The notes beneath the pieces are model-generated. The model was not told the origin of the DNA. It was given only the letters and a program-made list of their open reading frames with translations, and searched no databases. 43,468 bases of DNA, taken from Promethearchaeota archaeon. GTDB taxonomy: Archaea; Asgardarchaeota; Lokiarchaeia; Sigyniarchaeales; SOKP01. Below, in pieces: positions 6,816 to 27,064 of this stretch. The stretch is from contig JAEOTS010000147.1 in assembly GCA_016839745.1 (NCBI GenBank), positions 1-43,468 on the forward strand, written 5' to 3'. The stretch's first letter is position 1. Every line of letters starts with the position of its first letter. A program made the translations under genes and the position numbers.

Positions 6816-8264
6816 TTAATTAAAGTCTGGTCTTTTATCTTGCCATGGAACTAACTTTTCGAATGCTCTAGAGACTTGTAGAACAGTTAATTCATCAAAT
6901 CTCTTTCCTACAATTTGCATTCCAATTGGTAATCCCTCACTAGACCAACCACAAGGAATTGAAGCTGCTGGATGACCACTTATATTGAATGGATATGTAA
7001 ATGATAACCAGCCTAACAGTGAAACTCTTTTTTCATTTATAATTAAATTTGATTTCATCGTTTCTATATCGTGAATTCCAGATTTACCTATTTCAAACGC
7101 AGGACACGCAAGAGTTGGAGTTATAATTATATCAAAATCTTTTAAGAGTCTGGAAATGTCAAGATATATCATTTCTCTTTGGACTTCTGCCATTTTCAGG
7201 TCTACTGAGGAAAATTTTAATCCCATATTAATAATCTCTACAAATTCAGGATCCATTTTATCTTTCCATTTCTTCAAAAAAGGTTGAAATGCATAGCCAA
7301 ATCCCGACGTCCAAAAAGTCCAGAATAGTGATTCAGGATTTTTTACTTTAAGCTTACTTTTATCAACTGACCAGTTTAACTGTTCAAATTTCTGGATAGC
7401 ATCTAAAACTGATTTTTCAACTTTAGGGTCGAGTGCTTCCGCAAATCCTAAATCTAAGGAATATCCAATTCTTAAATTTTTAGGTTTATCATTAAGTTTT
7501 TCTAAATAACTATAATTTGGTTTAGGTAAAGAGTATCGATCTGAAAAGTGCTCTCCTACCATCACATCCAATAATAATGCAGCATCCTTCACAAACCTGA
7601 CAATTGGACCTTTATGAACGAATGTACCAAGATAACCAAATAAAAACATATTACTTTGAGGAACTCGACCAAAAGTAGGTTTGAGGCCATAAATACCGCA
7701 AAAACTACTAGGAATCCTAATAGATCCTCCACCATCTGAGCCTATTGCTAATGGACTCAGTCCAGATGCTACAGCTGCTGCAGCCCCGCCACTAGACCCT
7801 CCAGGAGTTCTTTCTAAATTCCAAGGATTTTTGGTAACTCCAAAAACTAAATTATCTGTTTCTCCCTTAAATCCAAAAGCGGGAGTATTTGTTTTGCCTA
7901 AAATCACAGTACCAGCTTCTCTAGCTCTTTTAACAAGTATATCATCTCTCCGCGATTTATTATTCTCAAAAATTTTACTACCAAATGTGGTTCGTATTCC
8001 TTCTACTTCAGTTTCATCTTTTATAGAAAGAGGAATTCCATTCAAGATTCCGAGTTTTTTATCTTCCTTTACTCTTTTATCTGCTTCTTTTGCCATCTTT
8101 CTTGCTAATTCCAGCGTTGGAGTACAATAAGCGTTTATTATTGGGTTTATCTTTTGAATTCTTTCGATGATTGTTTCTGTAATTTCTTGAGATGTTAACT
8201 CTTGTGTTTTAATTTTTTCTGCCATTTCACAAGCAGACATGAAACATATATCTTCCTTCTTCAT
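6816..8264 (-). CDS. Amidase signature family protein (GatA-like amidase)
   Basis: SIKD lysine, PGGSSGGAAAAVASG, GSDGGGSIRIPSSFCG. No gatB/gatC adjacent. Confidence 0.92.
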   Translation of the reverse strand: MKKEDICFMSACEMAEKIKTQELTSQEITETIIERIQKINPIINAYCTPTLELARKMAKEADKRVKEDKKLGILNGIPLSIKDETEVEGIRTTFGSKIFENNKSRRDDILVKRAREAGTVILGKTNTPAFGFKGETDNLVFGVTKNPWNLERTPGGSSGGAAAAVASGLSPLAIGSDGGGSIRIPSSFCGIYGLKPTFGRVPQSNMFLFGYLGTFVHKGPIVRFVKDAALLLDVMVGEHFSDRYSLPKPNYSYLEKLNDKPKNLRIGYSLDLGFAEALDPKVEKSVLDAIQKFEQLNWSVDKSKLKVKNPESLFWTFWTSGFGYAFQPFLKKWKDKMDPEFVEIINMGLKFSSVDLKMAEVQREMIYLDISRLLKDFDIIITPTLACPAFEIGKSGIHDIETMKSNLIINEKRVSLLGWLSFTYPFNISGHPAASIPCGWSSEGLPIGMQIVGKRFDELTVLQVSRAFEKLVPWQDKRPDFN

Positions 8265-8494
8265 ATTTTTCGCCTTATATTTAAGATAGTGTAGTATAAA
8301 GTTCTTTATGAGTAATGGATGAAAAGATTGTTAAAAATTTAAACATTTTGCTAGAGAGAGTTTATTCCAGAGCCTAATCACAAACAATATAAAGAATGGG
8401 TTGTCTTACCCATAAGAATATCAATAACTATTATAACAAATCCCAAATTACATATTATAATAATATAAAGAAGCTATCAGAACGGTTTGTATCT

Positions 8495-9835
8495 ATGGAG
8501 AAAAAGAAAGTTGTTATAATTGGAGCTTTAGGAATGGATTTTCACCTATTCAACACAGTTTTTCGAGATAATGATGAATACGAAGTTGTCGCGTTCACTA
8601 TCGCTGGAGAACAAAATGTTGGAACAACCGAGGAGACACAAAGGAAATATCCGGCAGAATTAGCTGGTAAATTATATCCAAAGGGGATTCCAATGCTACC
8701 AGAAGAACATTTAGAAGAAATAATCAAGCATCATCAAATTGAAGAAGTGGTATTCGCGTATTCTGATGTTTCTCACGAAGAAGTAATGCACAAAGCATCT
8801 AGGGTTTTAGCTGCTGGAGCTAATTATCGATTAATTTCTGGGAAATTTACCCAGATCAAATCTAATAAACCAGTAGTTGCTATATGTGCGGTAAGGACAG
8901 GGTGCGGTAAAAGCCAAGTTTCACGGGCAACTTATCGGTATTTAATGAGTAAAGGATTTAAAGTTGTAGCAGTAAGAGAACCAATGCCTTATGGTGATTT
9001 AATAAAACAAAATGTGATGCGTTTTGAAAAATACGAAGATTTAGATAAATACGACTGTACTATAGAAGAACGAGAAGAGTACGAACCGTATATTGAACAG
9101 GGATTAGTGATATACTCTGGAGTTGATTACGAAAAAATCATACGGGAAGCTGAAAAGGAAGCCGATGTCATAATTTTCGACGGTGGAAATAATGAAATTT
9201 CGTTTTATGTTACTGATTTGTTGTTCATTGTTGTTGACCCATTAAGGCCGGGTCATGAAGTTAAATTTCATCCTGGAGAGGTTAACGCAAAATATGCTGA
9301 TGCGTTTGTCATTAATAAAATGAATAGCGCAAAACCTGAGGATGTTAAAATTGTTGAAGAGAATTTAGACAAGTTAAATCCTCTAGCTACTAAGATTTAT
9401 ACTAATTCTGTCGTAACGATCGAGGGTAATCAAGATTTTAAAGGAAAGAGAGTTCTAGTTGTAGAAGATGGTCCAACTCTAACACATGGAAATATGTCTT
9501 ATGGAGCAGGATATGTTGCTGCTCAAAATAGTGGAGCAATAATAGTAGATCCTCGACCCTACCTTACAGGTTCAATGAAAACTGTTTTTGAAGAATTCCC
9601 TCAAATTACTGAAATTATTCCTGCAATGGGTTATAACGATCAACAGATTAAGGATATGGAAGATACTTTGAATAAAGCGGAAGCTGAAGTTATTATAGAT
9701 GGCAGCCCAATAGATCTTGATAAATTAATAAAGAGTAATAAACCAATTGTGAGAGTCAACTACGATATCGAAGCTATAAAAAGTCCAACAATAGAAGAAG
9801 TACTCGATAACTTCATTACCAGATTTTTGAAATAA
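8495..9835 (+). CDS. arcE: Arginine synthetase ArcE-like protein (COG2403, cyclic 2,3-diphosphoglycerate synthetase-like P-loop family)
   Basis: VVIIGALGMDFHLFN, YPAELAGKLYPKGIP, FAYSDVSHEEVMH, P-loop AVRTGCGKSQ, PMPYGDL, TIEEREEYEP, DGGNNE, VEDGPTLTHG. Clusters with OTC and carbamate kinase. Start moved from 8396 to the in-frame ATG at 8495 where family homology begins. Confidence 0.78.
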   Translation: MEKKKVVIIGALGMDFHLFNTVFRDNDEYEVVAFTIAGEQNVGTTEETQRKYPAELAGKLYPKGIPMLPEEHLEEIIKHHQIEEVVFAYSDVSHEEVMHKASRVLAAGANYRLISGKFTQIKSNKPVVAICAVRTGCGKSQVSRATYRYLMSKGFKVVAVREPMPYGDLIKQNVMRFEKYEDLDKYDCTIEEREEYEPYIEQGLVIYSGVDYEKIIREAEKEADVIIFDGGNNEISFYVTDLLFIVVDPLRPGHEVKFHPGEVNAKYADAFVINKMNSAKPEDVKIVEENLDKLNPLATKIYTNSVVTIEGNQDFKGKRVLVVEDGPTLTHGNMSYGAGYVAAQNSGAIIVDPRPYLTGSMKTVFEEFPQITEIIPAMGYNDQQIKDMEDTLNKAEAEVIIDGSPIDLDKLIKSNKPIVRVNYDIEAIKSPTIEEVLDNFITRFLK

Positions 9836-9840
9836 ACTTC

Positions 9841-9855
9841 TCTTTCTATTTTTTT
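9841..9855 (+). terminator. Pyrimidine/T-tract archaeal terminator
   Basis: TCTTTCTATTTTTTT just after the arcE stop. Confidence 0.5.
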
Positions 9856-9940
9856 CCAAATAAATCTTTGTTTCTAAAGAAATGTTTATATAATCAGAAG
9901 ACATAAGTGTAATTATACAATTTTATGAGGTCGAGAAAGT

Positions 9941-10345
9941 TTGGATGATTCAATAATTATTAAAATCAAAAACCACTTATCTGACAGAATAGAAGAGATT
10001 AGAGATGGGACGTACATTCCATACTACGAGAGATTTAAAGACTTGCCGGAATTCAGAGGAATCGAACAAGAAACTTTTGAAATCGCCCGAAGAGAGTGGT
10101 ATAAAGAAAATCTTCCTGCGTCTTATGTTAAACCTTTGGTTTTTGTTAAAAAGCGTTTAAAGAGGTCACTTACTAATGGATTCTGTTTCTTATTTATAGG
10201 AGTGATACTCCTTGTACTTGGCTTGGTGTATGGGGGAGGGAGTAATTGGTCTGGTGGATCTGAGACCATATTAATATGGATCGGCATAATTATAATGGTT
10301 TTTGGAATTATAATCCTATTATACAATAGGTTCAGAAAGTCTTAA
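9941..10345 (+). CDS. Hypothetical membrane protein (two C-terminal TM helices)
   Basis: Charged N-terminus followed by two hydrophobic segments separated by GGGSNWSGGS. GAGG upstream of TTG. Confidence 0.7.
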   Translation: MDDSIIIKIKNHLSDRIEEIRDGTYIPYYERFKDLPEFRGIEQETFEIARREWYKENLPASYVKPLVFVKKRLKRSLTNGFCFLFIGVILLVLGLVYGGGSNWSGGSETILIWIGIIIMVFGIIILLYNRFRKS

Positions 10346-10567
10346 TGATGGATGATGTTTAGTGTAGGAATAATTTACAGTTAATTTAATTAATAGATTT
10401 TTGAATTAAAACTACTCGCTATTTTTTAGGAACTCTAGTTTTCACGGATTTCGAAAGATTTTATTTGCAAGTATTTGGGGGAGAAGAGATAATATTAATT
10501 TTTATTGTTTAATACACTCAGTATTATATATTAATATTTGATTTGCTATTTATCTTGGTGATAATTT

Positions 10568-12748
10568 TTGATTTTAGCTGAAAAAAGATATGAACTTCGC
10601 GATGTCCAGAAAGGATATACTAACAGAACGCTCTACATTAATCTCGCCAATAACAAGATTGAGATAAAACCCGTCACCGCCGGAATGAAAGAGAATTTTA
10701 TCGGAGGGAAAGGATTCGATCTTTGGCTCATGTGGAATGGACTCCCGCAAGATAAAATTGTTAAATGGAACGATTCTGAGAACGAAATTTGTATCTCTTC
10801 TGGACCGTTAGGTGGAAACATCTTTTATCCTGGTTCTGGAAAGTCAATAGTCACAACGGTTTCTCCCTTGACAGATATCATTATAGATTCTAATGTGGGC
10901 GGATATTTCGGTCCTTATTTGAAATTCTCGGGGTTTGACGCAATCGAAATTCAAGGAAAAGCTGAAAAAGAAGTAATTGTACATATAGATGGTGTCGAGG
11001 GACTTGTTCAAATCAAACAAGTTGAAGAATCTGAAGGCTTATCTAAATACTCTCACGAATTGACACAACAGCTTACCGAACATTACGCTCAAGACGATAG
11101 AGAAAAACAACGAATTTCGGTAGTAAGCACAGGTCCTGCTGCAAAACACACCAATTGGGGACTGTTAAACTTTTCGTGGTACGTCCCTGGTCGTAAATGG
11201 GCGTCAAGTAAGCAAGCGGGACGAGGGGGGGTTGGCACCGTTTTTGCTGATAAAAATGTCAAAGCATTAGTGTGTCGTTCTCCAAAGGTAACCGTTGGTT
11301 CAAACAATCCTGCTAATTTAGAACAAGCAAGAAAAATCGGCATCGCACACACTCAAGAAATAATTAAACTTGATCCTGTCCAGAACGAAATGCGAAGAGT
11401 GGGAACTGGACACCTTCCAGACATTATGAATGTTACAGATCTCCTACCAACAGAAAACTTTCGATTTGGAGCTCACAGAGAAATTCGAGGAAAAAACATC
11501 CCTTATAATAGGGAGATCATGAGAGAGATATACTCTGGGAAAGAAGGAGGGGATGGGTGTTGGATTGGTTGTACTGTTAGCTGTTCTCACTACTCAGAGG
11601 GATACGAAATTCGAACAGGTCCTTTTAAGGGTCAGAAATTAATTGTTGATGGCCCAGAATACGAAACTATAGCCGGTTGTGGCTCAAACTGGGGTGTTTG
11701 GGACCCAAAATGGGTTTTAGAAGTAAATTTCTATTGCGATACATATGGTATAGATACTATCTCAGTTGGCACTGGAATCGCGTTTGTAATGGAGTGTTTT
11801 GAAGCGGGTATTCTCAATAAGGAAAGAACCGGCGGATTAGAATTAAATTTCGGAAATGCCGAAGCTGCGGTTGAGCTGATTCATCAAATGGCTAAAGGTG
11901 AAGAATTTGGAATTATCGTAGGAAAAGGTATTAAATCCATGAAGAATTATTTTGTGGAAAAATTCGGAGCAGATCCAAAATTCGTTCAAGATATCGGTAT
12001 GGAACACAAAGGATTAGAATTTTCCGAGTACGTAACGAAAGAATCGTTAGCACAACAAGGTGGATATGGGTTAACAAACAAAGGACCGCAACACGACGAA
12101 GCATGGCTGATATTTGACGATGTCATTCGAAATTCGATTCCCACATTTAAAGATAAAGCTAAAGCATTACAATATTTTCCACTATGGAGAACTTGGTTCG
12201 GATTATGTGGTTTATGTAAGTTACCTTGGAATGATATCCAACCGGAAAGTCAAGCAGATTACCCCATCAAGGATCCAGACACAGGAGAGTTAGTTCGCGC
12301 CAAAATTCCTGATCACCAAAAATGGTATGCAGAATATTTCTCAGCAGTTACAGGACGAGAATCGACTATAGAAGATCTTCTTTTAATGTCAGAACGAGTT
12401 TATACTTTTCAAAGGATATTTAACATAAGATTAGGTAAAGGACTCCGAGAAAACGATTCGAATCTACCTTATAGGGCTGTTGGACCAGTTACTCCTCTCG
12501 AATATGAAAGTCGCGCTGAAAGGTATGACAATCAGTTAAAAGAGATGAATATTGATATAGGGGGAATGTCTACTGAAGAGAAGATTAAAATACTCCGTAA
12601 ACATCGAGAAGAGCAATACGAGAAGCTCCAAGATGCGGTTTACTCGGAACGAGGCTGGAATAAAAACGGTTGCCCCACGATTGCGACTGTAAAAAGGTTA
12701 GGAATAGATTTTCATAAAATAATAGCTATTATTGCTCCTTATCAATAA
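10568..12748 (+). CDS. aor: Tungsten/molybdopterin aldehyde:ferredoxin oxidoreductase family protein
   Basis: SPLT..SNVGGYFG, AGRGGVG, CWIGCTVSC Fe-S motif, GPEYET, DTYGIDTIS, GLCKLPW, RGW..GCPT. GGTGA RBS at 10557-10561. Confidence 0.92.
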   Translation: MILAEKRYELRDVQKGYTNRTLYINLANNKIEIKPVTAGMKENFIGGKGFDLWLMWNGLPQDKIVKWNDSENEICISSGPLGGNIFYPGSGKSIVTTVSPLTDIIIDSNVGGYFGPYLKFSGFDAIEIQGKAEKEVIVHIDGVEGLVQIKQVEESEGLSKYSHELTQQLTEHYAQDDREKQRISVVSTGPAAKHTNWGLLNFSWYVPGRKWASSKQAGRGGVGTVFADKNVKALVCRSPKVTVGSNNPANLEQARKIGIAHTQEIIKLDPVQNEMRRVGTGHLPDIMNVTDLLPTENFRFGAHREIRGKNIPYNREIMREIYSGKEGGDGCWIGCTVSCSHYSEGYEIRTGPFKGQKLIVDGPEYETIAGCGSNWGVWDPKWVLEVNFYCDTYGIDTISVGTGIAFVMECFEAGILNKERTGGLELNFGNAEAAVELIHQMAKGEEFGIIVGKGIKSMKNYFVEKFGADPKFVQDIGMEHKGLEFSEYVTKESLAQQGGYGLTNKGPQHDEAWLIFDDVIRNSIPTFKDKAKALQYFPLWRTWFGLCGLCKLPWNDIQPESQADYPIKDPDTGELVRAKIPDHQKWYAEYFSAVTGRESTIEDLLLMSERVYTFQRIFNIRLGKGLRENDSNLPYRAVGPVTPLEYESRAERYDNQLKEMNIDIGGMSTEEKIKILRKHREEQYEKLQDAVYSERGWNKNGCPTIATVKRLGIDFHKIIAIIAPYQ

Positions 12749-12772
12749 AAACGAATTATGCAAACCTGATTC

Positions 12773-14860
12773 TTGATGGAAAATATAACTAAACACCCCA
12801 TTCTGGAAATTCCCGACAAGAAAAAGATAGACTTCAAATTCGATGGGAAACTTCTGTACGGATTTGAGGGGATGGTTATATCGTCTGCTCTTTTTTTAAA
12901 TAAAATTAAGATATTTGGACATCATGTTAAAGATCACAGTCCGCAAGGATTGTTTTGCGCAAATGGTCAGTGTTCTCAATGTAACGTAATCGCGGATGGC
13001 GTTCCCGTGAAAGCGTGCATGACTCCCTTAACGAAAGGGATGACAATTGAGAGCTGTAATGGTTTGCCAGAATTACCTTCGGAAGATAGTCGTGTTGAAG
13101 TTAGAGATATAGAAATAATAAATACTGATGTTCTCGTAATAGGAGGAGGTCCTGCGGGACTTTCGGCTACGAAAATTTTGGGAGAAAATAATATTGAAGT
13201 TATCCTTGTAGACGATAAATCAAGATTAGGTGGAAAATTAGTACTTCAAACTCATAAATTCTTTGGTTCTCAAGAGGATGTATATGCGGGCACACGCGGT
13301 ATAGATATAGGAAATATACTTGGAGATATAGTATCCAATCTTGATTCAGTAAAGATTTGGGTCAACAGTATAGTTTTAGCCATATTCAGCGACGAATTAG
13401 TTGGGATTATAAAGGATATGGACGAATACGTTTTGATTAAACCTAAGTACTTACTAATTGCAACTGGAGCAAGAGAAAAGATGCTAGTTTTTCCCGGAAA
13501 CACGCTTCCTGGGGTGTATGGTGCTGGTGCGTTTCAAACTTTAGTAAATCGAGATTTGATAAAAGCAGCGGAAAATGTGTTCATTGTTGGAGGGGGTAAT
13601 GTCGGATTAATAGCGGGATATCATGCAATTCAAGCAGGAATAAAAGTCGTGGGCTTGGTTGAAGCTTTACCCAAATGTGGAGGATATAAAGTCCACGAAG
13701 ACAAATTAAAAAGGTTAGGCGTTCCTATCTATACGAATCATACAGTTATATCTGCAAATGGTCAAGATAAACTTGAATCCGTGACTATTGGAAAGTTGAC
13801 AGATAGTTGGGATATTGAACCTGGTTCCGAAAAGACATTTGCTTGCGATACATTATTAATTGCAGTTGGATTAGATCCTGTCGATGAGTTTTATTATAAA
13901 GCACAGCAATTTAACATGAAAGTATGGATAGCGGGTGACGCTCAAGAAATAGCGGAGGCTTCTGCTGCAATTTTTACCGGTAAAATTGAAGCGCTAAAAA
14001 TTTTAAAAGAAATGGGAATTTCAATTGCCGAAAATCTTGAAGAGTTAGAAGATTTTGCGAATTTAATGAAAGCGAAACCTCCTGACCCTATTCAAACAGA
14101 AGTGGTAGATAAAGAAGAAGGTATCTTTCCACTATTTCATTGTAATCAAGAAATACCGTGCAACCCTTGTACGAGTGTGTGTCCTCAACAGCAAATCAAG
14201 ACGGTTGACGATTTGATTACTCAATTACCGTATTTTACCGACGACCAAGATTGTATTGGTTGTGGAAAATGCGTAGCAGTGTGTCCGGGATTAGCTATCA
14301 CTTTAGTTGATTATAGAAAAGATAATAAATCTCCAATAGTTACTTTCCCTTTAGAATTGACTTCTGAAAAGATTGAAGTCGGTCGAAAAGTCATGGTTGT
14401 TGGTAACGATGGGGAATTGGGTGAATTTGAAGTTACGAGAGCACGATTTCTCAAAGAATTTCCAAAAACCCAATTAGTCTCAGTTAGATTACCTTCGGAA
14501 ATCGCAAAGTTTGCTGTTGGGATTAAACTTATAAAATCAATTTATACCGAACCTATGGATCTCTATCAGCAATCATACACAGATGACGATATTATCGTAT
14601 GTAGATGCGAGAGAGTTTCGGTAGGAGAGGTACGAAAGTGGATTCGTTATGGAGTGCGTGATTTTAACGAATTAAAAGCATTAACTAAGGCTGGAATGGG
14701 AGCTTGTGGGGGGAAAACCTGCACCTCGCTGATTAATAGAATCTTCCGAGAGGAAGGGATAAAACAAGAAAACATTACTTCAGGCACGAAACGACCATTA
14801 TTTGTAGAAGTTCCAATGGGCGCATTCGCGGGAATAAAATCAAAGAAAGGGAGTAAATAA
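12773..14860 (+). CDS. Fused Fe-S/FAD electron-transfer subunit of a proline dehydrogenase / sarcosine oxidase / HcnAB-like complex
   Basis: N-terminal 2Fe-2S (CANGQCSQC...C), FAD/NAD Rossmann motifs GGGPAG and GGGNVG, ferredoxin motifs CNPCTSVCP and CIGCGKCVAVCP, C-terminal BFD-like CRCE...GMGACGGKTC. Confidence 0.85.
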   Translation: MMENITKHPILEIPDKKKIDFKFDGKLLYGFEGMVISSALFLNKIKIFGHHVKDHSPQGLFCANGQCSQCNVIADGVPVKACMTPLTKGMTIESCNGLPELPSEDSRVEVRDIEIINTDVLVIGGGPAGLSATKILGENNIEVILVDDKSRLGGKLVLQTHKFFGSQEDVYAGTRGIDIGNILGDIVSNLDSVKIWVNSIVLAIFSDELVGIIKDMDEYVLIKPKYLLIATGAREKMLVFPGNTLPGVYGAGAFQTLVNRDLIKAAENVFIVGGGNVGLIAGYHAIQAGIKVVGLVEALPKCGGYKVHEDKLKRLGVPIYTNHTVISANGQDKLESVTIGKLTDSWDIEPGSEKTFACDTLLIAVGLDPVDEFYYKAQQFNMKVWIAGDAQEIAEASAAIFTGKIEALKILKEMGISIAENLEELEDFANLMKAKPPDPIQTEVVDKEEGIFPLFHCNQEIPCNPCTSVCPQQQIKTVDDLITQLPYFTDDQDCIGCGKCVAVCPGLAITLVDYRKDNKSPIVTFPLELTSEKIEVGRKVMVVGNDGELGEFEVTRARFLKEFPKTQLVSVRLPSEIAKFAVGIKLIKSIYTEPMDLYQQSYTDDDIIVCRCERVSVGEVRKWIRYGVRDFNELKALTKAGMGACGGKTCTSLINRIFREEGIKQENITSGTKRPLFVEVPMGAFAGIKSKKGSK

Positions 14861-14862
14861 TC

Positions 14863-16029
14863 TTGGTGGAATACGACGTTATTATCATAGGAGCTGGAAG
14901 TGTAGGCGTCCCAACTGCTTTAGCGACAGCCAAAAGCGGACTTAAAACGCTTGTACTTGATGAATTACCTTCTGTTGCTCAAGGCGATAATAAACATGCA
15001 ATTGGAGGAATTAGAGCGACTCACTCCCTTAAAAGCAAGATATGGTTATGTCAAAGATCAATAGAAATATTTGCTTCTTGGAAAGAATTGTTTGGGGACG
15101 ATATATGGTGGGAACAAGGTGGTTATTGTTTTCTTGCGTTTACTAACGAACACGAACAAATGTTGAAAGCTACAGTTCGAGAGCAAAAAGAATTCGGGTT
15201 AAACATAAACTATGTAGATGCTGAAAAAATCAGAGGTTTAGTACCTGGAATAAACAATGAGAATTTAAGAGGTGGTACATTTAGTCCTGAAGATGGAAAT
15301 TCGTCTCCTTTATTAGCTCTTCATGCTTTTTATCGTAAATCAAAAGAATACGGAGCAGAATATACTTTTAATGAAACTGTTACTGAAATCAAAACGCAGA
15401 GAAAAAGAATAATTGGTGTAAAAACAAACAAAACTGAATATAAAGCTCAAACAATTGTTAATTCAGCGGGAGCTCACGCAAAAAACATAGGTGACATGCT
15501 AAATATTGATTTACCCGTCATTCCAGAAAGTCATGAGGCAGGGATCACTGAGCCCGTTAAAAAAAAATTTTCTACGATGGTGGTCGATATAAAACCTGCT
15601 ACAGATAAGAAGTTTGGAAATTCAAAAAATTACTATTTCTATCAGAATAAAGAGGGTAAAATTATTTTTTGCCTCACGCCAGACCCTAATATTCCCGGAC
15701 TAGATCGTTTAGAAACTAGTGTATTCTTACCACAAATCGCAAAACGTATGGTTAATTTACTCCCACGATTAAAAAATATTAAAATAAGAAGAACCTGGAG
15801 GGGATTGTATCCTATGACTCCTGATGGAAACCCTATAATTGGTAAGGTTGATGATATTGAAGGATATATTAATGCTGTAGGCATGTGTGGACAGGGTTTT
15901 ATGATTGGTCCTGGACTTGGCGAACTTCTTAGCCGCTTAATCACAGAAAAGCTTAGCTCAAAAGATTATCAAATGCTAGAAGAACTTGGTTACAGCCGCG
16001 ATTATTATAAAATAGAAGATTTGAAGTAA
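14863..16029 (+). CDS. FAD-dependent amino-acid dehydrogenase catalytic subunit (DAO family, proline dehydrogenase beta / sarcosine oxidase beta-like)
   Basis: IIGAGSVG, WRGLYPMTPDGNPIIG, GMCGQGFMIGPG. Starts 2 nt after the preceding gene. Confidence 0.85.
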   Translation: MVEYDVIIIGAGSVGVPTALATAKSGLKTLVLDELPSVAQGDNKHAIGGIRATHSLKSKIWLCQRSIEIFASWKELFGDDIWWEQGGYCFLAFTNEHEQMLKATVREQKEFGLNINYVDAEKIRGLVPGINNENLRGGTFSPEDGNSSPLLALHAFYRKSKEYGAEYTFNETVTEIKTQRKRIIGVKTNKTEYKAQTIVNSAGAHAKNIGDMLNIDLPVIPESHEAGITEPVKKKFSTMVVDIKPATDKKFGNSKNYYFYQNKEGKIIFCLTPDPNIPGLDRLETSVFLPQIAKRMVNLLPRLKNIKIRRTWRGLYPMTPDGNPIIGKVDDIEGYINAVGMCGQGFMIGPGLGELLSRLITEKLSSKDYQMLEELGYSRDYYKIEDLK

Positions 16030-16082
16030 AAAATATAAAGTATAATCTGATATATTCATTAAAACGATAAATTGATGTTAAA

Positions 16083-17015
16083 ATGGTACGCCATTTATTA
16101 AAAATTTCTGATTTTACAAAGGCTGAAATTGAGAAGATTATAGATAAAGCAATAGAGATAAAAAATAATCCCCAAGATTTTGAGTCTGCTTTGAGAGGAG
16201 AAACGCTTTTAATGATTTTTGAAAAGCCTTCTCTGAGAACAAGAATCTCTTTTGAAGTAGGTATGCAACAACTAGGAGGTCATGCGATATTCTATTCGAT
16301 AAAGGATTCTCCACTTGGGAGGAAGGAAAATATACACGATACTGCTAAGGCTGCATCTAAATATATTAATTTAATGGCTGCGAGATTGTTTAAAAGACAT
16401 GATATGTGGGATTTAGCTAAATATGCAGATGTTCCTGTAATTAATATGCTTGACGATTTCGCACATCCTTGCCAAATAATGGGAGATTTCTTAACTATAA
16501 AAGAGAAAAAAGGAAGACTGAATAATCTTAAAATTAGTTATTTCGGAGATGCTTATAACAATGTAACTTACGATTTAATGCGGATTGCTGCGATTTTTGG
16601 TTTAGAATTAGATGTTGCCTGTCCTGTTGGATCAGAATACACACCTGAACAAGGAGTCCTTGATGAAGTCTCTAAAATCTCAAAAGAAACTGGGGCATAC
16701 ATAAATATTATCCATGATGCCTATAATGCTGCGAGAGATTCTGATATAGTTTATACCGACTCCTGGATGTCGTATGGCATTCCAGTTGAAAAGGAGGAGG
16801 AACGACGGATAATTTTCACACCGTTCCAAGTTAACTCACAGATAATGGAAACTGCAAAATCAGACGCAATTTTTATGAACTGTTTACCAGCCAAACGAGG
16901 TTATGAACAAACTGCTGAAGTTATAGATGGACCTCAATCCTTTGTTTTCGATCAGGCAGAAAATAGATTACACAGTCAAAAAGCAATTATGCTCTTTTTA
17001 CGAGATAAATTTTAA
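16083..17015 (+). CDS. arcB: Ornithine carbamoyltransferase (probably catabolic)
   Basis: KPSLRT, HPCQ, YTDSWMSYG, FMNCLP, QAENRLH. Followed by carbamate kinase. Confidence 0.93.
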   Translation: MVRHLLKISDFTKAEIEKIIDKAIEIKNNPQDFESALRGETLLMIFEKPSLRTRISFEVGMQQLGGHAIFYSIKDSPLGRKENIHDTAKAASKYINLMAARLFKRHDMWDLAKYADVPVINMLDDFAHPCQIMGDFLTIKEKKGRLNNLKISYFGDAYNNVTYDLMRIAAIFGLELDVACPVGSEYTPEQGVLDEVSKISKETGAYINIIHDAYNAARDSDIVYTDSWMSYGIPVEKEEERRIIFTPFQVNSQIMETAKSDAIFMNCLPAKRGYEQTAEVIDGPQSFVFDQAENRLHSQKAIMLFLRDKF

Positions 17016-17138
17016 AAATTTTCCTTTTCATATCATTATTGATATTGTACCACATTAAAGAGAAAAGCTTTAAATAAAAAGTAAAATATTATTATTTTTC
17101 ATTTGCTTTAATATTGTTTGTTGTAAAGGTTCTCTTGA

Positions 17139-18053
17139 ATGAAAACATTAATCGTTGCGCTTGGAGGAAATGCCCTCATTAAACCGGGGGAAAGAGGAAC
17201 CCCGGAACAAATGATTAATAACTTACAAGCCCCCATAAAGCAAATTGCTGAATTATCTGAAGATTATAATGTCGTTATTACTCACGGGAATGGTCCTCAA
17301 GTAGGAGCACTTCTCTTACAACAAGAAGCAACTGATGAGATTACGAGAATGCCTTTACAAATTTTAGTAGCTGAAACTCAAGGACAAATTGGCTTCTTAA
17401 TTGAATCTACGCTCGACGAAGAACTCATGCGTCTTGGTACAGATATGAAAAAATATTTTCTCACTGTACTAACCTATGTAGAAGTTAATCCAAATGATAG
17501 AGCATTTATACGACCTACCAAACCAATTGGACCTTCATACAAAAGAAAGCGCCCTGGTTATGTGAAAACATCAAAAGGATGGAGACATGTAGTTCCCTCA
17601 CCAAAACCTTTAAGAATTGTCCAATCGCGAGAAATTAAAAAGTTAATGCAAGAAAATTTTATCGTTATATCTTGTGGAGGTGGTGGCGTTCCCGTTATTA
17701 AAGACGGTAAGCGCTTTCAAGGTGTTGAAGCTGTTATAGATAAAGATTTGGCAAGTGCAAAATTGGGGGAACAGATTAATGCAGAAATCCTTATAATTGC
17801 CACTGATGTCGAAAAAGTAGCATTAAATTACGGTAGAGTAGATTATAAATACCTAGATAAAGTTTCAACTGCAGACGCTAAAGATTATCTAAGGCAAGGA
17901 CATTTTCCTCCGGGAAGTATGGGTCCTAAAATACAAGCAGTAATTAATTTTCTAGAAGCTGGTGGCGAACAAGCAATTATAACTTCAATTGAAAAAATTA
18001 AAGAGGCGTTAGAAGGAAAGGCTGGCACTCATTTCTTCATAGAAGAAAGTTAA
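17139..18053 (+). CDS. arcC: Carbamate kinase
   Basis: ALGGNAL, THGNGPQVG, PTKPIGP, VVPSPKP, GVEAVIDKD, GSMGPK. Confidence 0.96.
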   Translation: MKTLIVALGGNALIKPGERGTPEQMINNLQAPIKQIAELSEDYNVVITHGNGPQVGALLLQQEATDEITRMPLQILVAETQGQIGFLIESTLDEELMRLGTDMKKYFLTVLTYVEVNPNDRAFIRPTKPIGPSYKRKRPGYVKTSKGWRHVVPSPKPLRIVQSREIKKLMQENFIVISCGGGGVPVIKDGKRFQGVEAVIDKDLASAKLGEQINAEILIIATDVEKVALNYGRVDYKYLDKVSTADAKDYLRQGHFPPGSMGPKIQAVINFLEAGGEQAIITSIEKIKEALEGKAGTHFFIEES

Positions 18054-18076
18054 ATCTAATAAAAAATGAACATAAA

Positions 18077-19336
18077 TTATGCTACTAGAACGTCTTCTAT
18101 TACCTTTAAAGCCCAATCTATTTGATCCTTAGTTATAATTAGAGGTGGAGCGAACCGAATGGTTGTAGAGTGTGTGTGTTTAGCCAGTACGCCCTTATCT
18201 TTAAACATCTGGACTATATGTCTTGAGTCTGAATAGAACTCAATCGCCATTAATAAACCCTTGCCTCTAACATCTTTTATGGGAATAATTGTATTCTTTT
18301 TGGCGATGTTTTTGAGTCCTTCTAGAAAGTAAGTTCCAAATTCTTTAGAGCGTTGGGCAAGATGATCGTCAAGATGGACCTCTAACGATTTTAGAGCCAC
18401 GGCTGAAGCTAAAGGATTTCCACCAAATGTGCTTCCATGCGTTCCTGGTTTAATAACGTCAGGGCCAATAATATCCTTAGTGGTTACTACTGCGGAAACG
18501 GGGTAAACACCACCACCAAGAGCTTTTCCAAGTAAGATCACATCAGGTTTTACACTTTCATGGTCACAAGCAAATAATTCTCCAGTTCTTCCGAAACCCG
18601 TTTGAATTTCGTCTGCAACCATCAAAACTTCGTATTTAGTACAGATTTCTCTTACTTTTTTAATAAATCCTTCAGGTGGTATCTTAACACCCGCTTCTCC
18701 TTGAACCGGTTCAAATAGGAACGCAGCTACTTTCTCAGGACCTATTTCTAATATTATATTTTCCAATTCTTCAGCATCCCCGTAAGGAATGGTAACAAAT
18801 CCCGGAGTGTAAGGTCCAAAATTACCGTAATATCTGACAGCTTCAATATCCGTACTAAAACCCACAATTGTGATTGATCTTCCATGAAAATTATCCCGGC
18901 AGATAATAATTTTAGCTTCGTTTTTAGGAATCTTCTTTTTTATATATCCCCATGCTCTAGCGACTTTCAAACCAGAAGAGACGGCTTCAGTCCCAGTGTT
19001 CATGGGAAGTGCCATAATACCTGTATTTTTTGGGTCGTTAATGTGTGGGCCTACAACTTCGCATAGCCTTTTTAAAAAAGGACCCATCATATCGTTATAG
19101 AAAGCTCGAGAGGTTAAAGTAACTTTATCAGCTTGCTCTTTTAAAGCCTTTATGATTTCTGGATGACAATGTCCAGTATTCTGAGAAGAGTAGGCAGATA
19201 AGCAATCCAAATACTTCTTTCCTTCTGGATCGTAAACCCATACTCCTTCTGCTTTAGAAATAACCACCTCTATTGGGTGATAGTTGTGAGCGCAGTATAT
19301 ATCATCCATTTCCATATAATCTTTTGAACTTGGCAT
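18077..19336 (-). CDS. rocD: Ornithine--oxo-acid aminotransferase
   Basis: HNYHP, DCLSAYS...GHCHP, PMNTGTEA, EPVQGEAG, DEIQTGFGRTG, LGKALGGG, HGSTFGGNPL. Confidence 0.93.
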   Translation of the reverse strand: MPSSKDYMEMDDIYCAHNYHPIEVVISKAEGVWVYDPEGKKYLDCLSAYSSQNTGHCHPEIIKALKEQADKVTLTSRAFYNDMMGPFLKRLCEVVGPHINDPKNTGIMALPMNTGTEAVSSGLKVARAWGYIKKKIPKNEAKIIICRDNFHGRSITIVGFSTDIEAVRYYGNFGPYTPGFVTIPYGDAEELENIILEIGPEKVAAFLFEPVQGEAGVKIPPEGFIKKVREICTKYEVLMVADEIQTGFGRTGELFACDHESVKPDVILLGKALGGGVYPVSAVVTTKDIIGPDVIKPGTHGSTFGGNPLASAVALKSLEVHLDDHLAQRSKEFGTYFLEGLKNIAKKNTIIPIKDVRGKGLLMAIEFYSDSRHIVQMFKDKGVLAKHTHSTTIRFAPPLIITKDQIDWALKVIEDVLVA

Positions 19337-19555: not shown

Positions 19556-19598
19556 TTTTCTAAAAAACAAGAAATTCACAAAAAAAAAGTTGAAAATA

Positions 19599-22115
19599 AT
19601 GAAAAAAAAACTAATTGTTTGTGCAACTTCTATTATAGTACTAATGATGCTTTTACCTACACAATCCGTCAGCGCACCTGGTCCATTTACTCCTTACGAA
19701 TTTTTGAGTACTAAAGTAACTATTATACGAGATAATTATGGAGTGCCTCATGTATTCGCAAGTACGAAAGAAGGATTAGCTTTTGGTGCTGGTTATGCCA
19801 TCGGTCAAGATCGGTTATGGCAAGCTGATTTATTCCGAAAACAAGCGTTTGGAAACCTTTTTGAATTTGGGATAGGAAGTCATTACGATGATTATGTAAC
19901 AAGATCACAAGGTTACAGTAGAGAAGAACTATTAGAAATTTGGGATAATTGGATACCCTCGTTTCCAGAAGCAAAATTGAAAGAAATGATCCTAGCATAT
20001 AGAGATGGTTTGAACACGTACATTGCAGAAGCTAATGAAGCTCTTGCGAATGGCGATCCGTCACTTATGCCTGCTGAATATCTATCTTTTGGTTTTCCAC
20101 TTGAGCCTTGGGAGGTCGAAGATAGTATTGCTCTTTTTGTAATGATGGCTTGGAGATTTGGAGCAACGGGAGGCGGTGAACTCAGTTATGCTGGTAGATA
20201 TCAAGCCCTTGAATCAATATATGGCCCAGATTTAGCATGGGAAATGTTTAACGATCTTTATCCTCAACAAGATCCTGGATCGGAGGTAACTATTCCAAGC
20301 GGAGCTTATTTCCCTAATTCAGGGGATTCTGAATCCATACCATCTTATCTTCCAAATAATATAGGTGAATCCATACCATCTTATCTTCCAAATAATATAG
20401 GTGAAATTGCCCAAAGTTATGAAGAATTTAGAATGGGGCAGGATATTTTCTTAAGTTCGATGGGTTTACCCACAAAATTCGGGAGTAACGCTTGGGTGGT
20501 TAATTCATGGAAATCTGAAAATGGAAACGCTATGGAAGTAGGAGGTCCCCAAATGGGTCATTCGACACCTCAAATTGTTAGTGAAATCGGATTTCATGGT
20601 GCAGGTATCGATGCGGTTGGGATGATGATGCCTATGGCTCCAACTATTTTAATTGGAGTAAGTCGGTACGGTGCATGGACGTCAACAACTGGGAGTTCAG
20701 ATATTATAGATACGTACATCGAGGTGTTGAATCCTGATAATCAATACCAATATTGGTATAACGGCGGATGGGTGGATATGGAAGTGAGAACGGAAACAGT
20801 ATATGGTCCATTTGGGTCAAATCCTGTAGATTTTCAGATTTATCGCACAGTGCATGGTCCCCTTATTCATCCAGTTCATGGGTGGGATTTGGCAAATAAT
20901 CTTGCTTATACTGTGAAGGTTCCATTCTTTAAAAACGAGATAGACGCCGAAGAAGGATGGATGCTCTTTCAACAATCTAGGTATATCGAGGACATGCAAG
21001 AAGCTGCTAGACGTGTTAAGTTAAGCCATAACTTCTTATGGGTTGATAGGAAGGGAAACTCAGGATATTGGCACTCAGGTACTTACCCAATTAAACCAAC
21101 TTATGGTAAGGATCTTGGAGCTGGTCCACGACTAATTGACGATAGGTTCCCATTATGGGGGACTGGAGAAGAAGAATGGGTTGGTGTCACAGGTTTTGCT
21201 GAGATGCCCAGAGCGATCAATCCATCTCAAGGGTTCATGGCAAACTGGAATAATAAACCAATTGCCGGTTGGCCATATTCAGAGGCAGATTGGGGCGAAG
21301 GACACCGCGTTAAATGGATACAAGAATTATTGGCGGCTGGAGATGACGTAACCTTTGAAGATATGCAAAGAATTAACACGGAAGCGGGGTACAACCACAT
21401 TCCTGGTATGAATTTCCTCCATTACCTTGTGGAAGCCGCAAGCACATCTGCTGATCCGGATGTTATGGAGGTACTACCCTACCTTGAGGGCTGGAATCAC
21501 CGTTATAACGATGAGATAGCTCCAAATTACCCAGATCCTGATGGAACCTACGACGATCCAGGTCTTACAATCTTTAATGCATGGTATGGAAAGATATTTG
21601 GCGAAGTTTTTGATGAAGCCGGTGTAAACGGAGGTTCAAGCACTTTAATTCACGTTTTTGATGGAGCAGATTCTAAATTACCTCTTAATTTCGATTATCT
21701 TAATGGAGAGGATAAAAACGATGTAATAAATCGAGCTTTAAAAATGGCAGTTGTTGATTTAAAGGCAGCAAGAGGCGACGATATCTCAACCTGGCTTACA
21801 CCAGTTATGATAACTTCTCTCTGGTCACAAGGAGCTCTACCCACTCCAAAAATGCATTCTATGAATCGAGGTACCTACAATCACGTAGCTGAAATGCTAA
21901 AAGATAAACGGTGGTACTGGTTATATAAACCTCCACCTCGTGCAGTCAACGTAATTCCACCAGGTCAAAGCGGATTCTTTAGTGCTCTAACTGGACCAAG
22001 TCCTCATGCGTACGATCAGCTAGCGTTATACGATACTTGGACGTATAAACCGCTTCTCTTCGAAGAGATGGACATCAGGAACGTTGCCGAGTCGATTTGG
22101 ACATATTATATGTAG
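19599..22115 (+). CDS. Secreted penicillin acylase family Ntn-hydrolase (peptidase S45)
   Basis: Signal peptide MKKKLIVCATSIIVLMMLLPTQSVSA, IIRDNYGVPHV, QDRLWQ, autoproteolysis site FG|SNAWVV, RTVHGP, ANWNNKP, PPGQSG. Confidence 0.92.
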   Translation: MKKKLIVCATSIIVLMMLLPTQSVSAPGPFTPYEFLSTKVTIIRDNYGVPHVFASTKEGLAFGAGYAIGQDRLWQADLFRKQAFGNLFEFGIGSHYDDYVTRSQGYSREELLEIWDNWIPSFPEAKLKEMILAYRDGLNTYIAEANEALANGDPSLMPAEYLSFGFPLEPWEVEDSIALFVMMAWRFGATGGGELSYAGRYQALESIYGPDLAWEMFNDLYPQQDPGSEVTIPSGAYFPNSGDSESIPSYLPNNIGESIPSYLPNNIGEIAQSYEEFRMGQDIFLSSMGLPTKFGSNAWVVNSWKSENGNAMEVGGPQMGHSTPQIVSEIGFHGAGIDAVGMMMPMAPTILIGVSRYGAWTSTTGSSDIIDTYIEVLNPDNQYQYWYNGGWVDMEVRTETVYGPFGSNPVDFQIYRTVHGPLIHPVHGWDLANNLAYTVKVPFFKNEIDAEEGWMLFQQSRYIEDMQEAARRVKLSHNFLWVDRKGNSGYWHSGTYPIKPTYGKDLGAGPRLIDDRFPLWGTGEEEWVGVTGFAEMPRAINPSQGFMANWNNKPIAGWPYSEADWGEGHRVKWIQELLAAGDDVTFEDMQRINTEAGYNHIPGMNFLHYLVEAASTSADPDVMEVLPYLEGWNHRYNDEIAPNYPDPDGTYDDPGLTIFNAWYGKIFGEVFDEAGVNGGSSTLIHVFDGADSKLPLNFDYLNGEDKNDVINRALKMAVVDLKAARGDDISTWLTPVMITSLWSQGALPTPKMHSMNRGTYNHVAEMLKDKRWYWLYKPPPRAVNVIPPGQSGFFSALTGPSPHAYDQLALYDTWTYKPLLFEEMDIRNVAESIWTYYM
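20330..20405. repeat. In-frame 36-bp perfect tandem duplication (ESIPSYLPNNIG x2)
   Basis: GAATCCATACCATCTTATCTTCCAAATAATATAGGT at 20331-20366 and 20367-20402. Confidence 0.95.
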
Positions 22116-25471: not shown

Positions 25472-27064
25472 TTAATAACCAACTGCTTGACCGTCCTTTC
25501 TTGGATCGGAAGCTGCAAGATAGCCATCTTCAAGTTTAGATATGATTTGAGCTCCACCAAATTCGAAGTAATGTCCGTTATATACTTGATGACCTAATTT
25601 TTTCAAATGTTCTTGCGTTTCTTTGTTAAAGCCAGGTTCAAGATTAACTTTAAGTCCTTGCATTACCCGCCACCTGGGAGCATCTAACGCCGCTTGAGGG
25701 TTTTGTTCGTACTCAAAAATTCTTACCATCATTTGAGCGTGCCCTTGGGGTTGCATTGAACCTCCCATAACGCCAAAACTCATTAATGGTAATCCGTTTT
25801 TTGTGACAAATGCCGGAATGATGGTGTGATATGGACGCTTTTCAGGTCCAACTTGGTTTGGATGACCCTCGATTAAATTAAATCCGTTACCGCGGTCTTG
25901 TAAACTAATGCCTGTTCCTGGAATAACAATTCCCGAACCAAAACCTAAGTAATTTGATTGAATAAAAGATACCATCATTCCATTAACATCAGCAGTAGCT
26001 AAATAGACGGTATCCCCGGTCTGAGGAATACCAAAATTAAAATGTTGCGCTAATTGTGGATCAATTAGAGCTGATCTTTCTTTCAAATAATTAGGAGCTA
26101 GAGCCCGAGAAGAATCAAATTCCAAATAACTTTTATCAGAAATATAGCGATACGCGTCCGAAAAAGCTAATTTTATCGCTTCTATTTGTAAGTGTATGGA
26201 TTGGGGAGAATCGGGTTCATATTGGTTTAGATCGCAATTCTTTAATATCCCTAATGCTATTAACGCTGCTAATCCTTGGCCATTAGGAGGTAGTTCGTGT
26301 AAAGTTATACCTTTATATTCCATAGTTAGTGGTTTTTCCCAAATTACTTCGTGTTTTTCTAAATCCTCCTGAGTTATCAATCCACCCGCATTTTTAGCGT
26401 GATCTACTATCTTTTTCGCCAATTTTCCACAATAAAAAGATTCTCCTTCAGAATCGGCGATTTCTTTTAAAGTATTTGCTTGTCCTGGATTTTTAAACAA
26501 TTCCCCTGGTCTTGGTGCCCTCCCATTGGGCAGAAAAGTGTCATGAAACTCAGGAAATCTCCGTTGATTATACATTACCGCTAATTGATTCCATAACTTT
26601 GCTGTTATTGGTGACACTAAATATCCATTCTCTGCATATTGAATTGCTGGTTCAAACAACTCTTTAAAATTTAATTGCCCATATTTTTTTGACAGAGCAA
26701 CCCAGGCAGAAACAGCCCCAGGAATCGTCACTGAATCCCATCCCAAAAGGGGCATGGTATTATACTTCGAAAAATGATCTACTGTCCAAGCAGCAGGAGA
26801 TTTACCAGAGGCATTTAATCCAACGATCTTTTTTCCATCCCAAACGATAGCAAAGGCATCGCTTCCAATGCCGTTGTTAACAGGTTCGACCACTGTAAGT
26901 GTTATAGCCGTTGCAATAGCGGCATCAATCGCATTTCCTCCCTTTGTAAGCATAGTTAACCCAGCTTGGCAAGCAAGAGGTTGAGATGTTGAAACAATAT
27001 TTTCAGCTAACACTGGCATTCTTCTAGAAGGATATGGGAACTTCCATTTAAAATAGTCTTCCAA
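25472..27064 (-). CDS. ggt: Gamma-glutamyltransferase family Ntn-hydrolase
   Basis: GGNAIDAAIA, VVEP..GIGSD, cleavage site GD|TVYL, QSNYLGFGSG, KRPYHTIIP, GVMGGSMQPQG, SDPRKDG. Confidence 0.93.
   Translation of the reverse strand: MEDYFKWKFPYPSRRMPVLAENIVSTSQPLACQAGLTMLTKGGNAIDAAIATAITLTVVEPVNNGIGSDAFAIVWDGKKIVGLNASGKSPAAWTVDHFSKYNTMPLLGWDSVTIPGAVSAWVALSKKYGQLNFKELFEPAIQYAENGYLVSPITAKLWNQLAVMYNQRRFPEFHDTFLPNGRAPRPGELFKNPGQANTLKEIADSEGESFYCGKLAKKIVDHAKNAGGLITQEDLEKHEVIWEKPLTMEYKGITLHELPPNGQGLAALIALGILKNCDLNQYEPDSPQSIHLQIEAIKLAFSDAYRYISDKSYLEFDSSRALAPNYLKERSALIDPQLAQHFNFGIPQTGDTVYLATADVNGMMVSFIQSNYLGFGSGIVIPGTGISLQDRGNGFNLIEGHPNQVGPEKRPYHTIIPAFVTKNGLPLMSFGVMGGSMQPQGHAQMMVRIFEYEQNPQAALDAPRWRVMQGLKVNLEPGFNKETQEHLKKLGHQVYNGHYFEFGGAQIISKLEDGYLAASDPRKDGQAVGY

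Follow-up and report, generated by a model that had tools for sequence, protein, structure and literature searches.

Results

An arginine, proline and aldehyde gene cluster in a Lokiarchaeial contig

The window analysed here is the 43,468-nt contig JAEOTS010000147.1 of assembly GCA_016839745.1 (Promethearchaeota archaeon, Lokiarchaeia), read on the forward strand. The host genome comprises 3.53 Mb on 192 contigs and is 89% complete. Seven genes at 8.4-19.4 kb of the window, identified from the list of open reading frames (ORFs) and by family profiles, encode a homologue of the arginine synthetase ArcE, a member of the pterin-dependent aldehyde ferredoxin oxidoreductase (AOR) or tungsten oxidoreductase (WOR) family, the alpha and beta subunits of a flavoenzyme related to L-proline dehydrogenase, ornithine carbamoyltransferase (OTC), carbamate kinase (CK) and ornithine delta-aminotransferase (OAT) (Table 1). 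A preliminary description made from the letters of the window had named this seven-gene set within 11 kb, and every member was found where it had been placed. The subject of this study is the AOR, for which gene neighbourhoods suggest a role as a substitute for NAD-dependent delta-1-pyrroline-5-carboxylate (P5C) dehydrogenase in the breakdown of arginine and proline.

Table 1. Genes and ORFs of the cluster, in window coordinates
Feature	Position	Strand	Evidence
arcE-like, arginine synthetase homologue, 446 aa	8495-9835	+	homology to Thermococcus orthologue
134-aa ORF in the arcE-AOR spacer	9941-10345	+	no Pfam or NCBIfam match
Long-clade AOR/WOR-family oxidoreductase, 726 aa	10568-12748	+	AFOR_N and AFOR_C
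Alpha, fused Fe-S flavoprotein, 695 aa	12773-14860	+	Fer2_4, Pyr_redox_2, 2x[4Fe-4S], BFD (Pfam)
Beta, DAO-fold, 388 aa	14863-16029	+	DAO, 200 bits
OTC, ornithine carbamoyltransferase	16083-17015	+	TIGR00658, 359 bits vs cut-off 281
CK, carbamate kinase	17139-18053	+	TIGR00746, 364.5 bits vs cut-off 358
OAT/RocD, ornithine delta-aminotransferase	18077-19336	-	TIGR01885, 511 bits vs cut-off 378

OTC, CK and OAT all exceeded their curated equivalog cut-offs, and ArcE, alpha, beta, OTC, CK and OAT were each encoded once in the genome. The intergenic gaps measured 732 nt between arcE and the AOR gene, 24 nt between the AOR and alpha genes, 2 nt between alpha and beta, 53 nt between beta and OTC and 123 nt between OTC and CK, and the CK and OAT genes were convergent. 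An alternative ATG at 8396 would extend ArcE to 479 aa; the orthologues were 445-447 aa long. The 134-aa ORF in the spacer recurred in one (L037) of 68 related species-level loci that were retrieved through ArcE; it is probably not a conserved gene and was set aside as a member of the cluster.

The AOR belongs to a separate clade of long proteins

The AOR scored 161 bits against PF02730 and 314 bits against PF01314. When aligned with the AOR of Pyrococcus furiosus (1AOR), its Cys331/335/339 and Glu366/Tyr488/His509 corresponded to Cys288/291/295 and Glu313/Tyr427/His448. These residues, and also Cys550, were invariant in 17 Loki orthologues. Cys550 is presumed to be the fourth cluster ligand. 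Because the catalytic second-shell residues and the cluster cysteines are intact, an aldehyde-oxidising enzyme is expected.

The best scores against solved structures were 168 bits for 1AOR, 142 for FOR, 117 for WOR5 and 78 for BamB, and by these scores and a phylogenetic tree the protein fell in none of the characterised clades (AOR sensu stricto, FOR, GAPOR, WOR4, WOR5/ASOR and BamB). An exhaustive profile search returned a distinct group of relatives of 700-740 aa with identities of 37-58%, below which came ordinary AORs of ~610 aa at ~33%. In a FastTree phylogeny the long proteins stood apart from the other AORs of the genome with 99% local support and were divided into two halves, one from Asgard archaea and one from bacteria. 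We refer to them as the long clade.

Bacterial members of the clade often lie near genes for the probable production of P5C or glutamate 5-semialdehyde

One Atribacterota metagenome-assembled genome (MAG) carried an AOR gene, 50% identical in its product to that of the window, straight after arcE. With this protein as the query, 80 loci were retrieved, mostly bacterial and outside Loki, in which all AORs were 50-60% identical to the AOR of the window. Genes of arginine, ornithine, proline or hydroxyproline metabolism were present within 8 kb in 47 of the 80 loci, and in 26 of the 40 loci flanked on each side by 5 kb or more. A direct producer of P5C or glutamate 5-semialdehyde (GSA), namely the alpha-beta proline dehydrogenase (PDH), a PutA-type proline dehydrogenase (ProDH), the glycyl-radical enzyme HypD, a class-III transaminase or ProAB, was encoded within 8 kb in 33 of the 80. 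The synteny of the AOR clade with arginine and proline genes, which the preliminary description had proposed as a check, is thus seen across genomes in differing gene combinations. The neighbours as a whole included PDH alpha-beta, arcE, OAT-like transaminases, PutA-type ProDH, HypD, ornithine cyclodeaminase, proline racemase and proBA; such contexts spanned at least five bacterial phyla and were scattered over the bacterial half of the tree.

The combination varied with the lineage. The Atribacterota loci held an NhaC-type transporter, arcE, the AOR gene and sometimes a class-III transaminase, and in Anaerolineae the AOR gene was followed by a transaminase that in two loci was 53-54% identical to the OAT of the window. 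Ornithine cyclodeaminase and proline racemase stood beside the AOR in Syntrophomonadaceae. A Bacillota MAG (L308) combined a sigma-54 activator, a PF01619 ProDH, a ferredoxin, the AOR, ThiS, ornithine cyclodeaminase, proline racemase and a binding protein. In many Bacillota and in a Calditrichales genome the order was a sigma-54 activator, an SNF transporter, four separate genes that together correspond to alpha, then beta, a poly-ferredoxin of 145 aa, the AOR and ThiS, and in some loci of the Bacillota type a ProA-like aldehyde dehydrogenase (ALDH) and a ProB-like kinase followed AOR/ThiS. On an unrelated metagenome contig, an OAT-like gene lay 22 nt upstream of the gene for a 43%-identical AOR; the single-contig contexts of P0005, P0006, P0010 and P0014 either were too short or gave no information.

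In Anaerosolibacter carboniphilus and Geosporobacter ferrireducens (L264:4072-10145 and L296), HypD and its activase were encoded directly upstream of the ferredoxin and AOR genes. This HypD scored 1158 bits against trans-4-hydroxy-L-proline dehydratase (6VXC), and the next class scored 569. The order HypD-ferredoxin-AOR suggests an oxidative fate for hydroxyproline-derived P5C instead of the usual reduction to proline.

Two other features of the clade loci were recorded. In loci of the Atribacterota type (L247:142-3138 and L252), two genes of the saccharopine dehydrogenase family preceded the series class-III transaminase, arcE, transporter and AOR. The long-clade AORs of an Asgard genome (L133, family f2, genus g10) and an uncultured archaeon (L285) nested in the bacterial half, with a bacterial-type WorS ferredoxin adjoining, a placement that suggests transfer between domains.

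The AOR and P5C dehydrogenase alternate downstream of beta

In a reciprocal test, 80 further loci were retrieved with a bacterial beta subunit, so that the AOR was not used as the query. A long AOR was encoded in 43 of them, and in 41 its gene lay downstream of beta, after a median gap of 538 nt that held a ferredoxin-like gene. Among the loci without an AOR, 28 had at least 3 kb of sequence downstream of beta, and in three of these, all from Bacillota, a gene of 543 aa began 60-91 nt after beta. Its product scored 633 bits against the P5C dehydrogenase 4IDM and ~600 bits against mammalian ALDH4A1. Two unrelated enzymes therefore alternate in the slot after beta, which argues that alpha-beta makes P5C and that ferredoxin plus AOR do the job of P5C dehydrogenase (P5CDH). 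An anti-correlation with rocA and putA, also put forward beforehand as a check, thus took the form of an exchange between ferredoxin plus AOR and the NAD-dependent enzyme.

The genome lacks a recognisable deiminase, arginase and P5C dehydrogenase

The preliminary description had noted that arginine deiminase, arginase and P5CDH were absent from the window. Profile searches extended these absences to the whole genome, and they hold for its 3.53 Mb at 89% completeness. For arginine deiminase (arcA), the best score to TIGR01078 was 25.5 bits against a cut-off of 489. The only gene of the arginase family was rejected as an arginase, as it is an agmatinase gene beside those for deoxyhypusine synthase and arginyl-tRNA synthetase. 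A single gene of the ALDH superfamily was present; we rejected it as a hidden P5CDH and regard it as generic, since it scored 171 bits on the P5CDH model (cut-off 648) and had no PDB match at 1e-60. P5CDH-like genes were found in none of 68 sampled genomes of the window's family.

The search found no PutA-type proline dehydrogenase (PF01619, Pro_dh) genome-wide, and no homologues of ProA, ProB or ornithine cyclodeaminase with the probes used. Genes for argG, argH and argC were likewise not found in the genome, which does encode P5C reductase (proC) and carbamoyl-phosphate synthetase (carB).

ArcE is an orthologue of the Thermococcales arginine synthetase

ArcE matched no Pfam, NCBIfam or PDB entry. 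In T. kodakarensis, TK2200 catalyses the reversible reaction arginine + ADP + Pi <-> citrulline + NH3 + ATP (Michimori et al. 2024, PMC11032458). An orthologue from a Thermococcus sp. MAG (L198) was used as a stand-in for TK2200, and the two proteins shared 56% identity and 75% positives over 439 residues, in effect their full length, with the GCGKS P-loop kept. CK was a neighbour in 30, and OTC in 29, of the 92 arcE loci that came from other phyla. The ArcE/COG2403-type assignment of the preliminary description is thus borne out by homology to the Thermococcales enzyme and by association with OTC and CK in a genome free of arcA. We accept the protein as an arginine synthetase orthologue, with its activity predicted by homology. 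Relatives carry the public annotations 'GTPase' or 'cyclic 2,3-diphosphoglycerate synthase', and the latter label, used by NCBI, makes another activity of ArcE formally possible. Homologues of TK2200 bear the same two labels in the paper that described ArcE (PMC11032458).

In MAGs of Eubacteriales and Aminicenantes, the series arcE-CK-OTC continued with a protein of ~720-745 aa that had no Pfam match and then a dehydrogenase of the D-amino-acid oxidase (DAO) type. The large protein was encoded at L207:9187-11421, L183:9214-11367 and L228:4003-6231 and was split into two ORFs in L225. In L207 an ornithine cyclodeaminase gene followed that of the DAO-type dehydrogenase.

Alpha-beta resembles L-proline dehydrogenase

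The best solved relative of beta was the beta subunit of Pyrococcus horikoshii L-proline dehydrogenase (1Y56_B), at 175 bits, and the next match reached 89 bits. Alpha matched 2GAG_A and 1Y56_A at ~70 bits each, and its four modules, fused here, were encoded by four separate genes in Bacillota. The NCBIfam matches of alpha and beta were all under their cut-offs. From these comparisons, beta is predicted to be a proline-dehydrogenase-like catalytic subunit.

The pair might instead act on D-proline, D-hydroxyproline, sarcosine or an opine. Its family includes sarcosine oxidase as well as D-hydroxyproline dehydrogenase, opine oxidase and HCN synthase. In the Asgard families f7, f24 and f20, a monofunctional PutA-type ProDH (PF01619) was encoded 0.4-4 kb from alpha-beta (L142:5069-5995, L143, L144:11790-12719 and L149:5335-6261), and in 12 bacterial loci without an AOR, beta was followed by another set of genes that these loci had in common. 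Such a substrate is unlikely, given that the L-proline dehydrogenase beta subunit scored twice as high as any other match, that P5CDH directly followed beta in three loci, and that the genome of the window had no other proline dehydrogenase that we could find. A reading of the whole cluster as an opine or sarcosine system was considered and is not favoured.

A further observation was made in the f24 loci, where an arginase-family gene and then a probable tRNA synthetase gene followed ProDH; that the latter encodes prolyl-tRNA synthetase is a guess.

The gene order is conserved within a narrow range of Asgard archaea

In the loci retrieved through ArcE, the AOR gene was downstream of arcE in 51 of 68, and in 47 of those it was also followed by alpha, usually with beta, and then by OTC. 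CK and OAT came after OTC where the contig continued. The order arcE-AOR-alpha-beta-OTC was unchanged despite insertions of up to ~4 kb. The genome of the window carried 12 AOR paralogues (12 contigs, 3.5 Mb), an unusually high number, and no arginine or proline neighbours were found within 9 kb of the other 11. With the order kept in relatives and the other paralogues unlinked, the arrangement reflects more than chance.

An AOR orthologue was present, in single copy, in 166 of 301 sampled Asgard genomes, which belonged to six families only, and the alpha-beta pair was distributed over a partly different set. In the 40 loci that were fetched, the full cluster was restricted to genera g1, g2, g4 and g5 of f1, the family of the window, and genus g11 of the sister family f2 (L134). 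Elsewhere in Asgard the AOR (53-71% identity), alpha-beta and arc genes lay apart from one another. The cluster thus joins three separable modules that have been kept together in five genera. Within Asgard, the linkage was confined to these two families.

In family f9, the AOR genes (L122:2599-8336, L135, L138 and L139) lay near genes for HdrB-like (CCG) and HdrC-like proteins and a 928-aa flavoprotein resembling GltD/HdrA. Where alpha-beta is missing, these Hdr-like proteins may instead serve as the partner that handles the electrons.

Neighbouring genes

The cluster is flanked by genes for an amidase-signature enzyme (6816-8264, minus strand), an 841-aa protein of the penicillin amidase family (19590-22115, plus strand) and a gamma-glutamyltranspeptidase (25472-27064, minus strand), which may feed it with amino acids from amides or peptides. 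The same contig encodes the D-lysine 5,6-aminomutase alpha subunit (PF09043, 897 bits) and lysine 2,3-aminomutase (LAM_C plus radical SAM) at 34726-36294 and 42376-43464, both on the minus strand. With these lysine-fermentation genes, the contig gathers several amino-acid catabolic modules.

Discussion

A proposed route from arginine and proline to glutamate

We propose that the cluster is a catabolic module that would funnel arginine and proline to glutamate. By homology, ArcE would convert arginine, ADP and Pi to citrulline, NH3 and ATP, OTC would carry out the phosphorolysis of citrulline to ornithine and carbamoyl phosphate, and CK would yield a second ATP. OAT would then convert ornithine to GSA, which is in equilibrium with P5C, and alpha-beta would deliver the same P5C from proline. 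The long-clade AOR would replace the NAD-dependent P5CDH by oxidising GSA to glutamate at a tungsto- or molybdopterin site, and the two low-potential electrons would pass through the [4Fe-4S] cluster of the AOR, either to ferredoxin or onto the Fe-S domains that alpha carries. Alternatively, they could leave to NAD(P)+ through alpha, which is encoded 24 nt downstream and has two [4Fe-4S] sites and a WorN-type FAD/NAD(P) module.

GSA is suggested as the substrate because it is the aldehyde common to the reactions of the AOR's neighbours. The convergence of both routes on an aldehyde oxidised by the AOR, as the preliminary description had it, gains support from the synteny of the clade and from the slot exchange with P5CDH. 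We therefore consider that the long-clade AOR is probably a GSA/P5C oxidoreductase in an arginine and proline catabolic module, with the substrate assigned entirely from genomic context.

It is also conceivable that the proline dehydrogenase, as alpha-beta or as alpha-beta-gamma-delta, forms one electron-confurcating unit with the long AOR, in which electrons from proline and very low-potential electrons from GSA would meet on the Fe-S and FAD sites of alpha to give two NAD(P)H. The P5C/proline couple, at ~ -120 mV, is too positive for the reduction of NAD+ or ferredoxin, and the acid/aldehyde couple lies at ~ -580 mV. The tight alpha-beta-ferredoxin-AOR operons in the 41 loci of the Bacillota type and the 24-nt junction between the AOR and alpha are consistent with confurcation and do not demonstrate it; we think it rather unlikely. 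If true, it would let strict anaerobes that have no quinone chain oxidise proline to glutamate.

Points that weigh against the proposal

Several observations count against a GSA-oxidising AOR in such a module. No linked gene was seen in 33 of the 80 clade loci, 14 of which had full flanks. Within Asgard, the AOR orthologues of families f7, f9, f24 and f29 and of genus g10 of f2 (53-69% identity) had no arginine or proline neighbours, and neither did those of four f1 genera. In f9 the AOR was present in 60 of 76 genomes and alpha-beta was absent. The linkage in Asgard, taken alone, would also fit descent within a single lineage. One genome (G165) held the full cluster plus a P5CDH-like gene, and the incompleteness of the window's genome bears on the absences reported for it. 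With regard to alpha-beta, the PutA-type ProDH beside it in other Asgard families may mean, if both enzymes are non-redundant there, that it uses another substrate. As for the electron acceptor, the window AOR is flanked by neither a WorS-type poly-ferredoxin gene nor a ferredoxin gene, unlike the bacterial members of the clade.

Other substrates and the reverse direction

The AOR could instead oxidise 4-aminobutyraldehyde or 4-guanidinobutyraldehyde (from arginine, agmatine or putrescine) or aldehydes derived from 2-oxoacids, or it could serve in detoxification, and the clustering would then reflect co-regulation in amino-acid fermentation with no shared intermediate. Characterised AORs are broad-spectrum enzymes (PMC12096430), and the size of the paralogue set in the genome and the unlinked Asgard orthologues outside the two families agree with this reading. 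So do most Atribacterota loci, in which arcE and the AOR have no adjacent GSA producer, and some relatives in unrelated contexts (L118 and L121). Against this, the partners change from phylum to phylum and most of them still share the production or supply of P5C or GSA (PDH, ProDH, HypD, OAT, ProA and ornithine cyclodeaminase), and the slot exchange with P5CDH points specifically to P5C/GSA. We consider a different aldehyde quite unlikely.

A biosynthetic or bidirectional cluster is distinctly improbable in our judgement. In such a cluster, reduced ferredoxin would drive the AOR from glutamate to GSA; OAT, OTC (with carbamoyl phosphate from carbamoyl-phosphate synthetase or CK) and ArcE would lead on to arginine, and P5C reductase to proline. 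AOR enzymes can reduce acids, and the gene content of the genome, without argG, argH, argC and ProA/ProB-like genes but with carB and proC, would suit this direction. The reaction of ArcE runs both ways and can sustain the synthesis of arginine in vivo, and the discoverers of the enzyme raised that option for organisms that lack argininosuccinate synthetase and lyase (PMC11032458). However, CK is the catabolic signature that was used in the discovery of ArcE (PMC11032458), and the bacterial partners of the clade are catabolic (PutA-type ProDH, HypD, ornithine cyclodeaminase, sigma-54 activators and transporters). The clade also alternates with P5CDH, an enzyme of the oxidative direction only, and in L272 proBA adjoins the AOR gene, so the canonical route from glutamate to GSA is present there. 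Catabolism is favoured on account of CK, the bacterial partners, the alternation with P5CDH and the lysine aminomutases, amidases and gamma-glutamyltranspeptidase encoded in the window.

Implications

If GSA oxidation by the long-clade AOR is correct, the two-ATP arginine synthetase pathway would be extended to glutamate and low-potential electrons, and strict anaerobes, Asgard archaea included, would have a route for oxidising proline, hydroxyproline and ornithine without a recognisable P5CDH. Metabolic reconstructions in which these organisms are scored as incapable of turning arginine or proline into glutamate would also be corrected. The cluster is carried by several cultured Bacillota, so the proposal can be tested at the bench now.

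Comparison with known systems

No paper linking an AOR to P5C or proline dehydrogenase, or giving an AOR this role, was found in the literature searched, and the main text of the paper on the isolation of Prometheoarchaeum mentions neither arginine, proline nor aldehyde. The closest parallel is the arginine synthetase pathway of T. kodakarensis (ArcE TK2200, ArcB and ArcC; PMC11032458). As in that pathway, arcE occurs with OTC and CK and without arginine deiminase, and OAT would take ornithine onward. In T. kodakarensis, however, ornithine goes to proline synthesis and neither an AOR nor a proline dehydrogenase has been described in the pathway, whereas here both lie between arcE and OTC, which implies a continuation to glutamate. 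The same paper names Lokiarchaeota among the carriers of arcE, and its main text includes no aldehyde enzyme in the pathway (PMC11032458).

The bacterial arginase/roc and put routes (RocA/PutC/PutA; ALDH4A1 type, 4IDM) share the convergence of ornithine and proline on P5C/GSA and then glutamate. They differ in the last enzyme: unlike RocA/PutC, the candidate belongs to the pterin/Fe-S AOR family and not to ALDH, and it would release its electrons at low potential to Fe-S carriers and not directly to NAD+. The Thermococcales dye-linked L-proline dehydrogenase (P. horikoshii PDH1, 1Y56) provides the closest solved relative of beta, and alpha is related to PH1363 and SoxA; the alpha of the window differs in holding four redox modules in one 695-aa chain.

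FOR of P. furiosus and Thermococcus litoralis (1B25/1B4N) is a member of the same AOR family. For many years a C4-C6 semialdehyde or dialdehyde produced from basic amino acids has been suspected as the true substrate of FOR, and the crystal contains bound glutarate (PMC2432063, PMC12096430). The statement of the preliminary description that no characterised GSA:ferredoxin oxidoreductase is known agrees with the literature searched, in which FOR is nevertheless a suspected semialdehyde enzyme. The window AOR differs from FOR, to which it scored just the 142 bits given above, in being ~100 residues longer and in forming a separate clade, and the role of FOR itself is unproven. Oxidation of GSA by the long clade, if true, would give substance to a decades-old suspicion that archaeal tungsten enzymes act on semialdehydes of basic amino acids.

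In a recent survey, only five of 92 tungsten-oxidoreductase clades had a defined physiological role, and proline, ornithine and semialdehydes were unmentioned (Putumbaka et al. 2026, PMC13328260). The long clade would be a sixth with a specific candidate role, that of an oxygen-sensitive, Fe-S-linked substitute for P5CDH. Like the Class II and Class III enzymes (WorL+WorS and WorL+WorS+WorN, for example Aromatoleum AorABC; PMC13328260), its bacterial members adjoin a 145-aa WorS-like poly-[4Fe-4S] gene, and by this feature they fit Class II of Putumbaka et al. (PMC13328260). The window departs from both classes, with no WorS gene and with an alpha subunit that is shared with a DAO-type dehydrogenase. 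Within alpha, the Pyr_redox_2 FAD module has the domain type of WorN, and the Fe-S and FAD modules of this subunit might, judged from their domain content, substitute for WorS.

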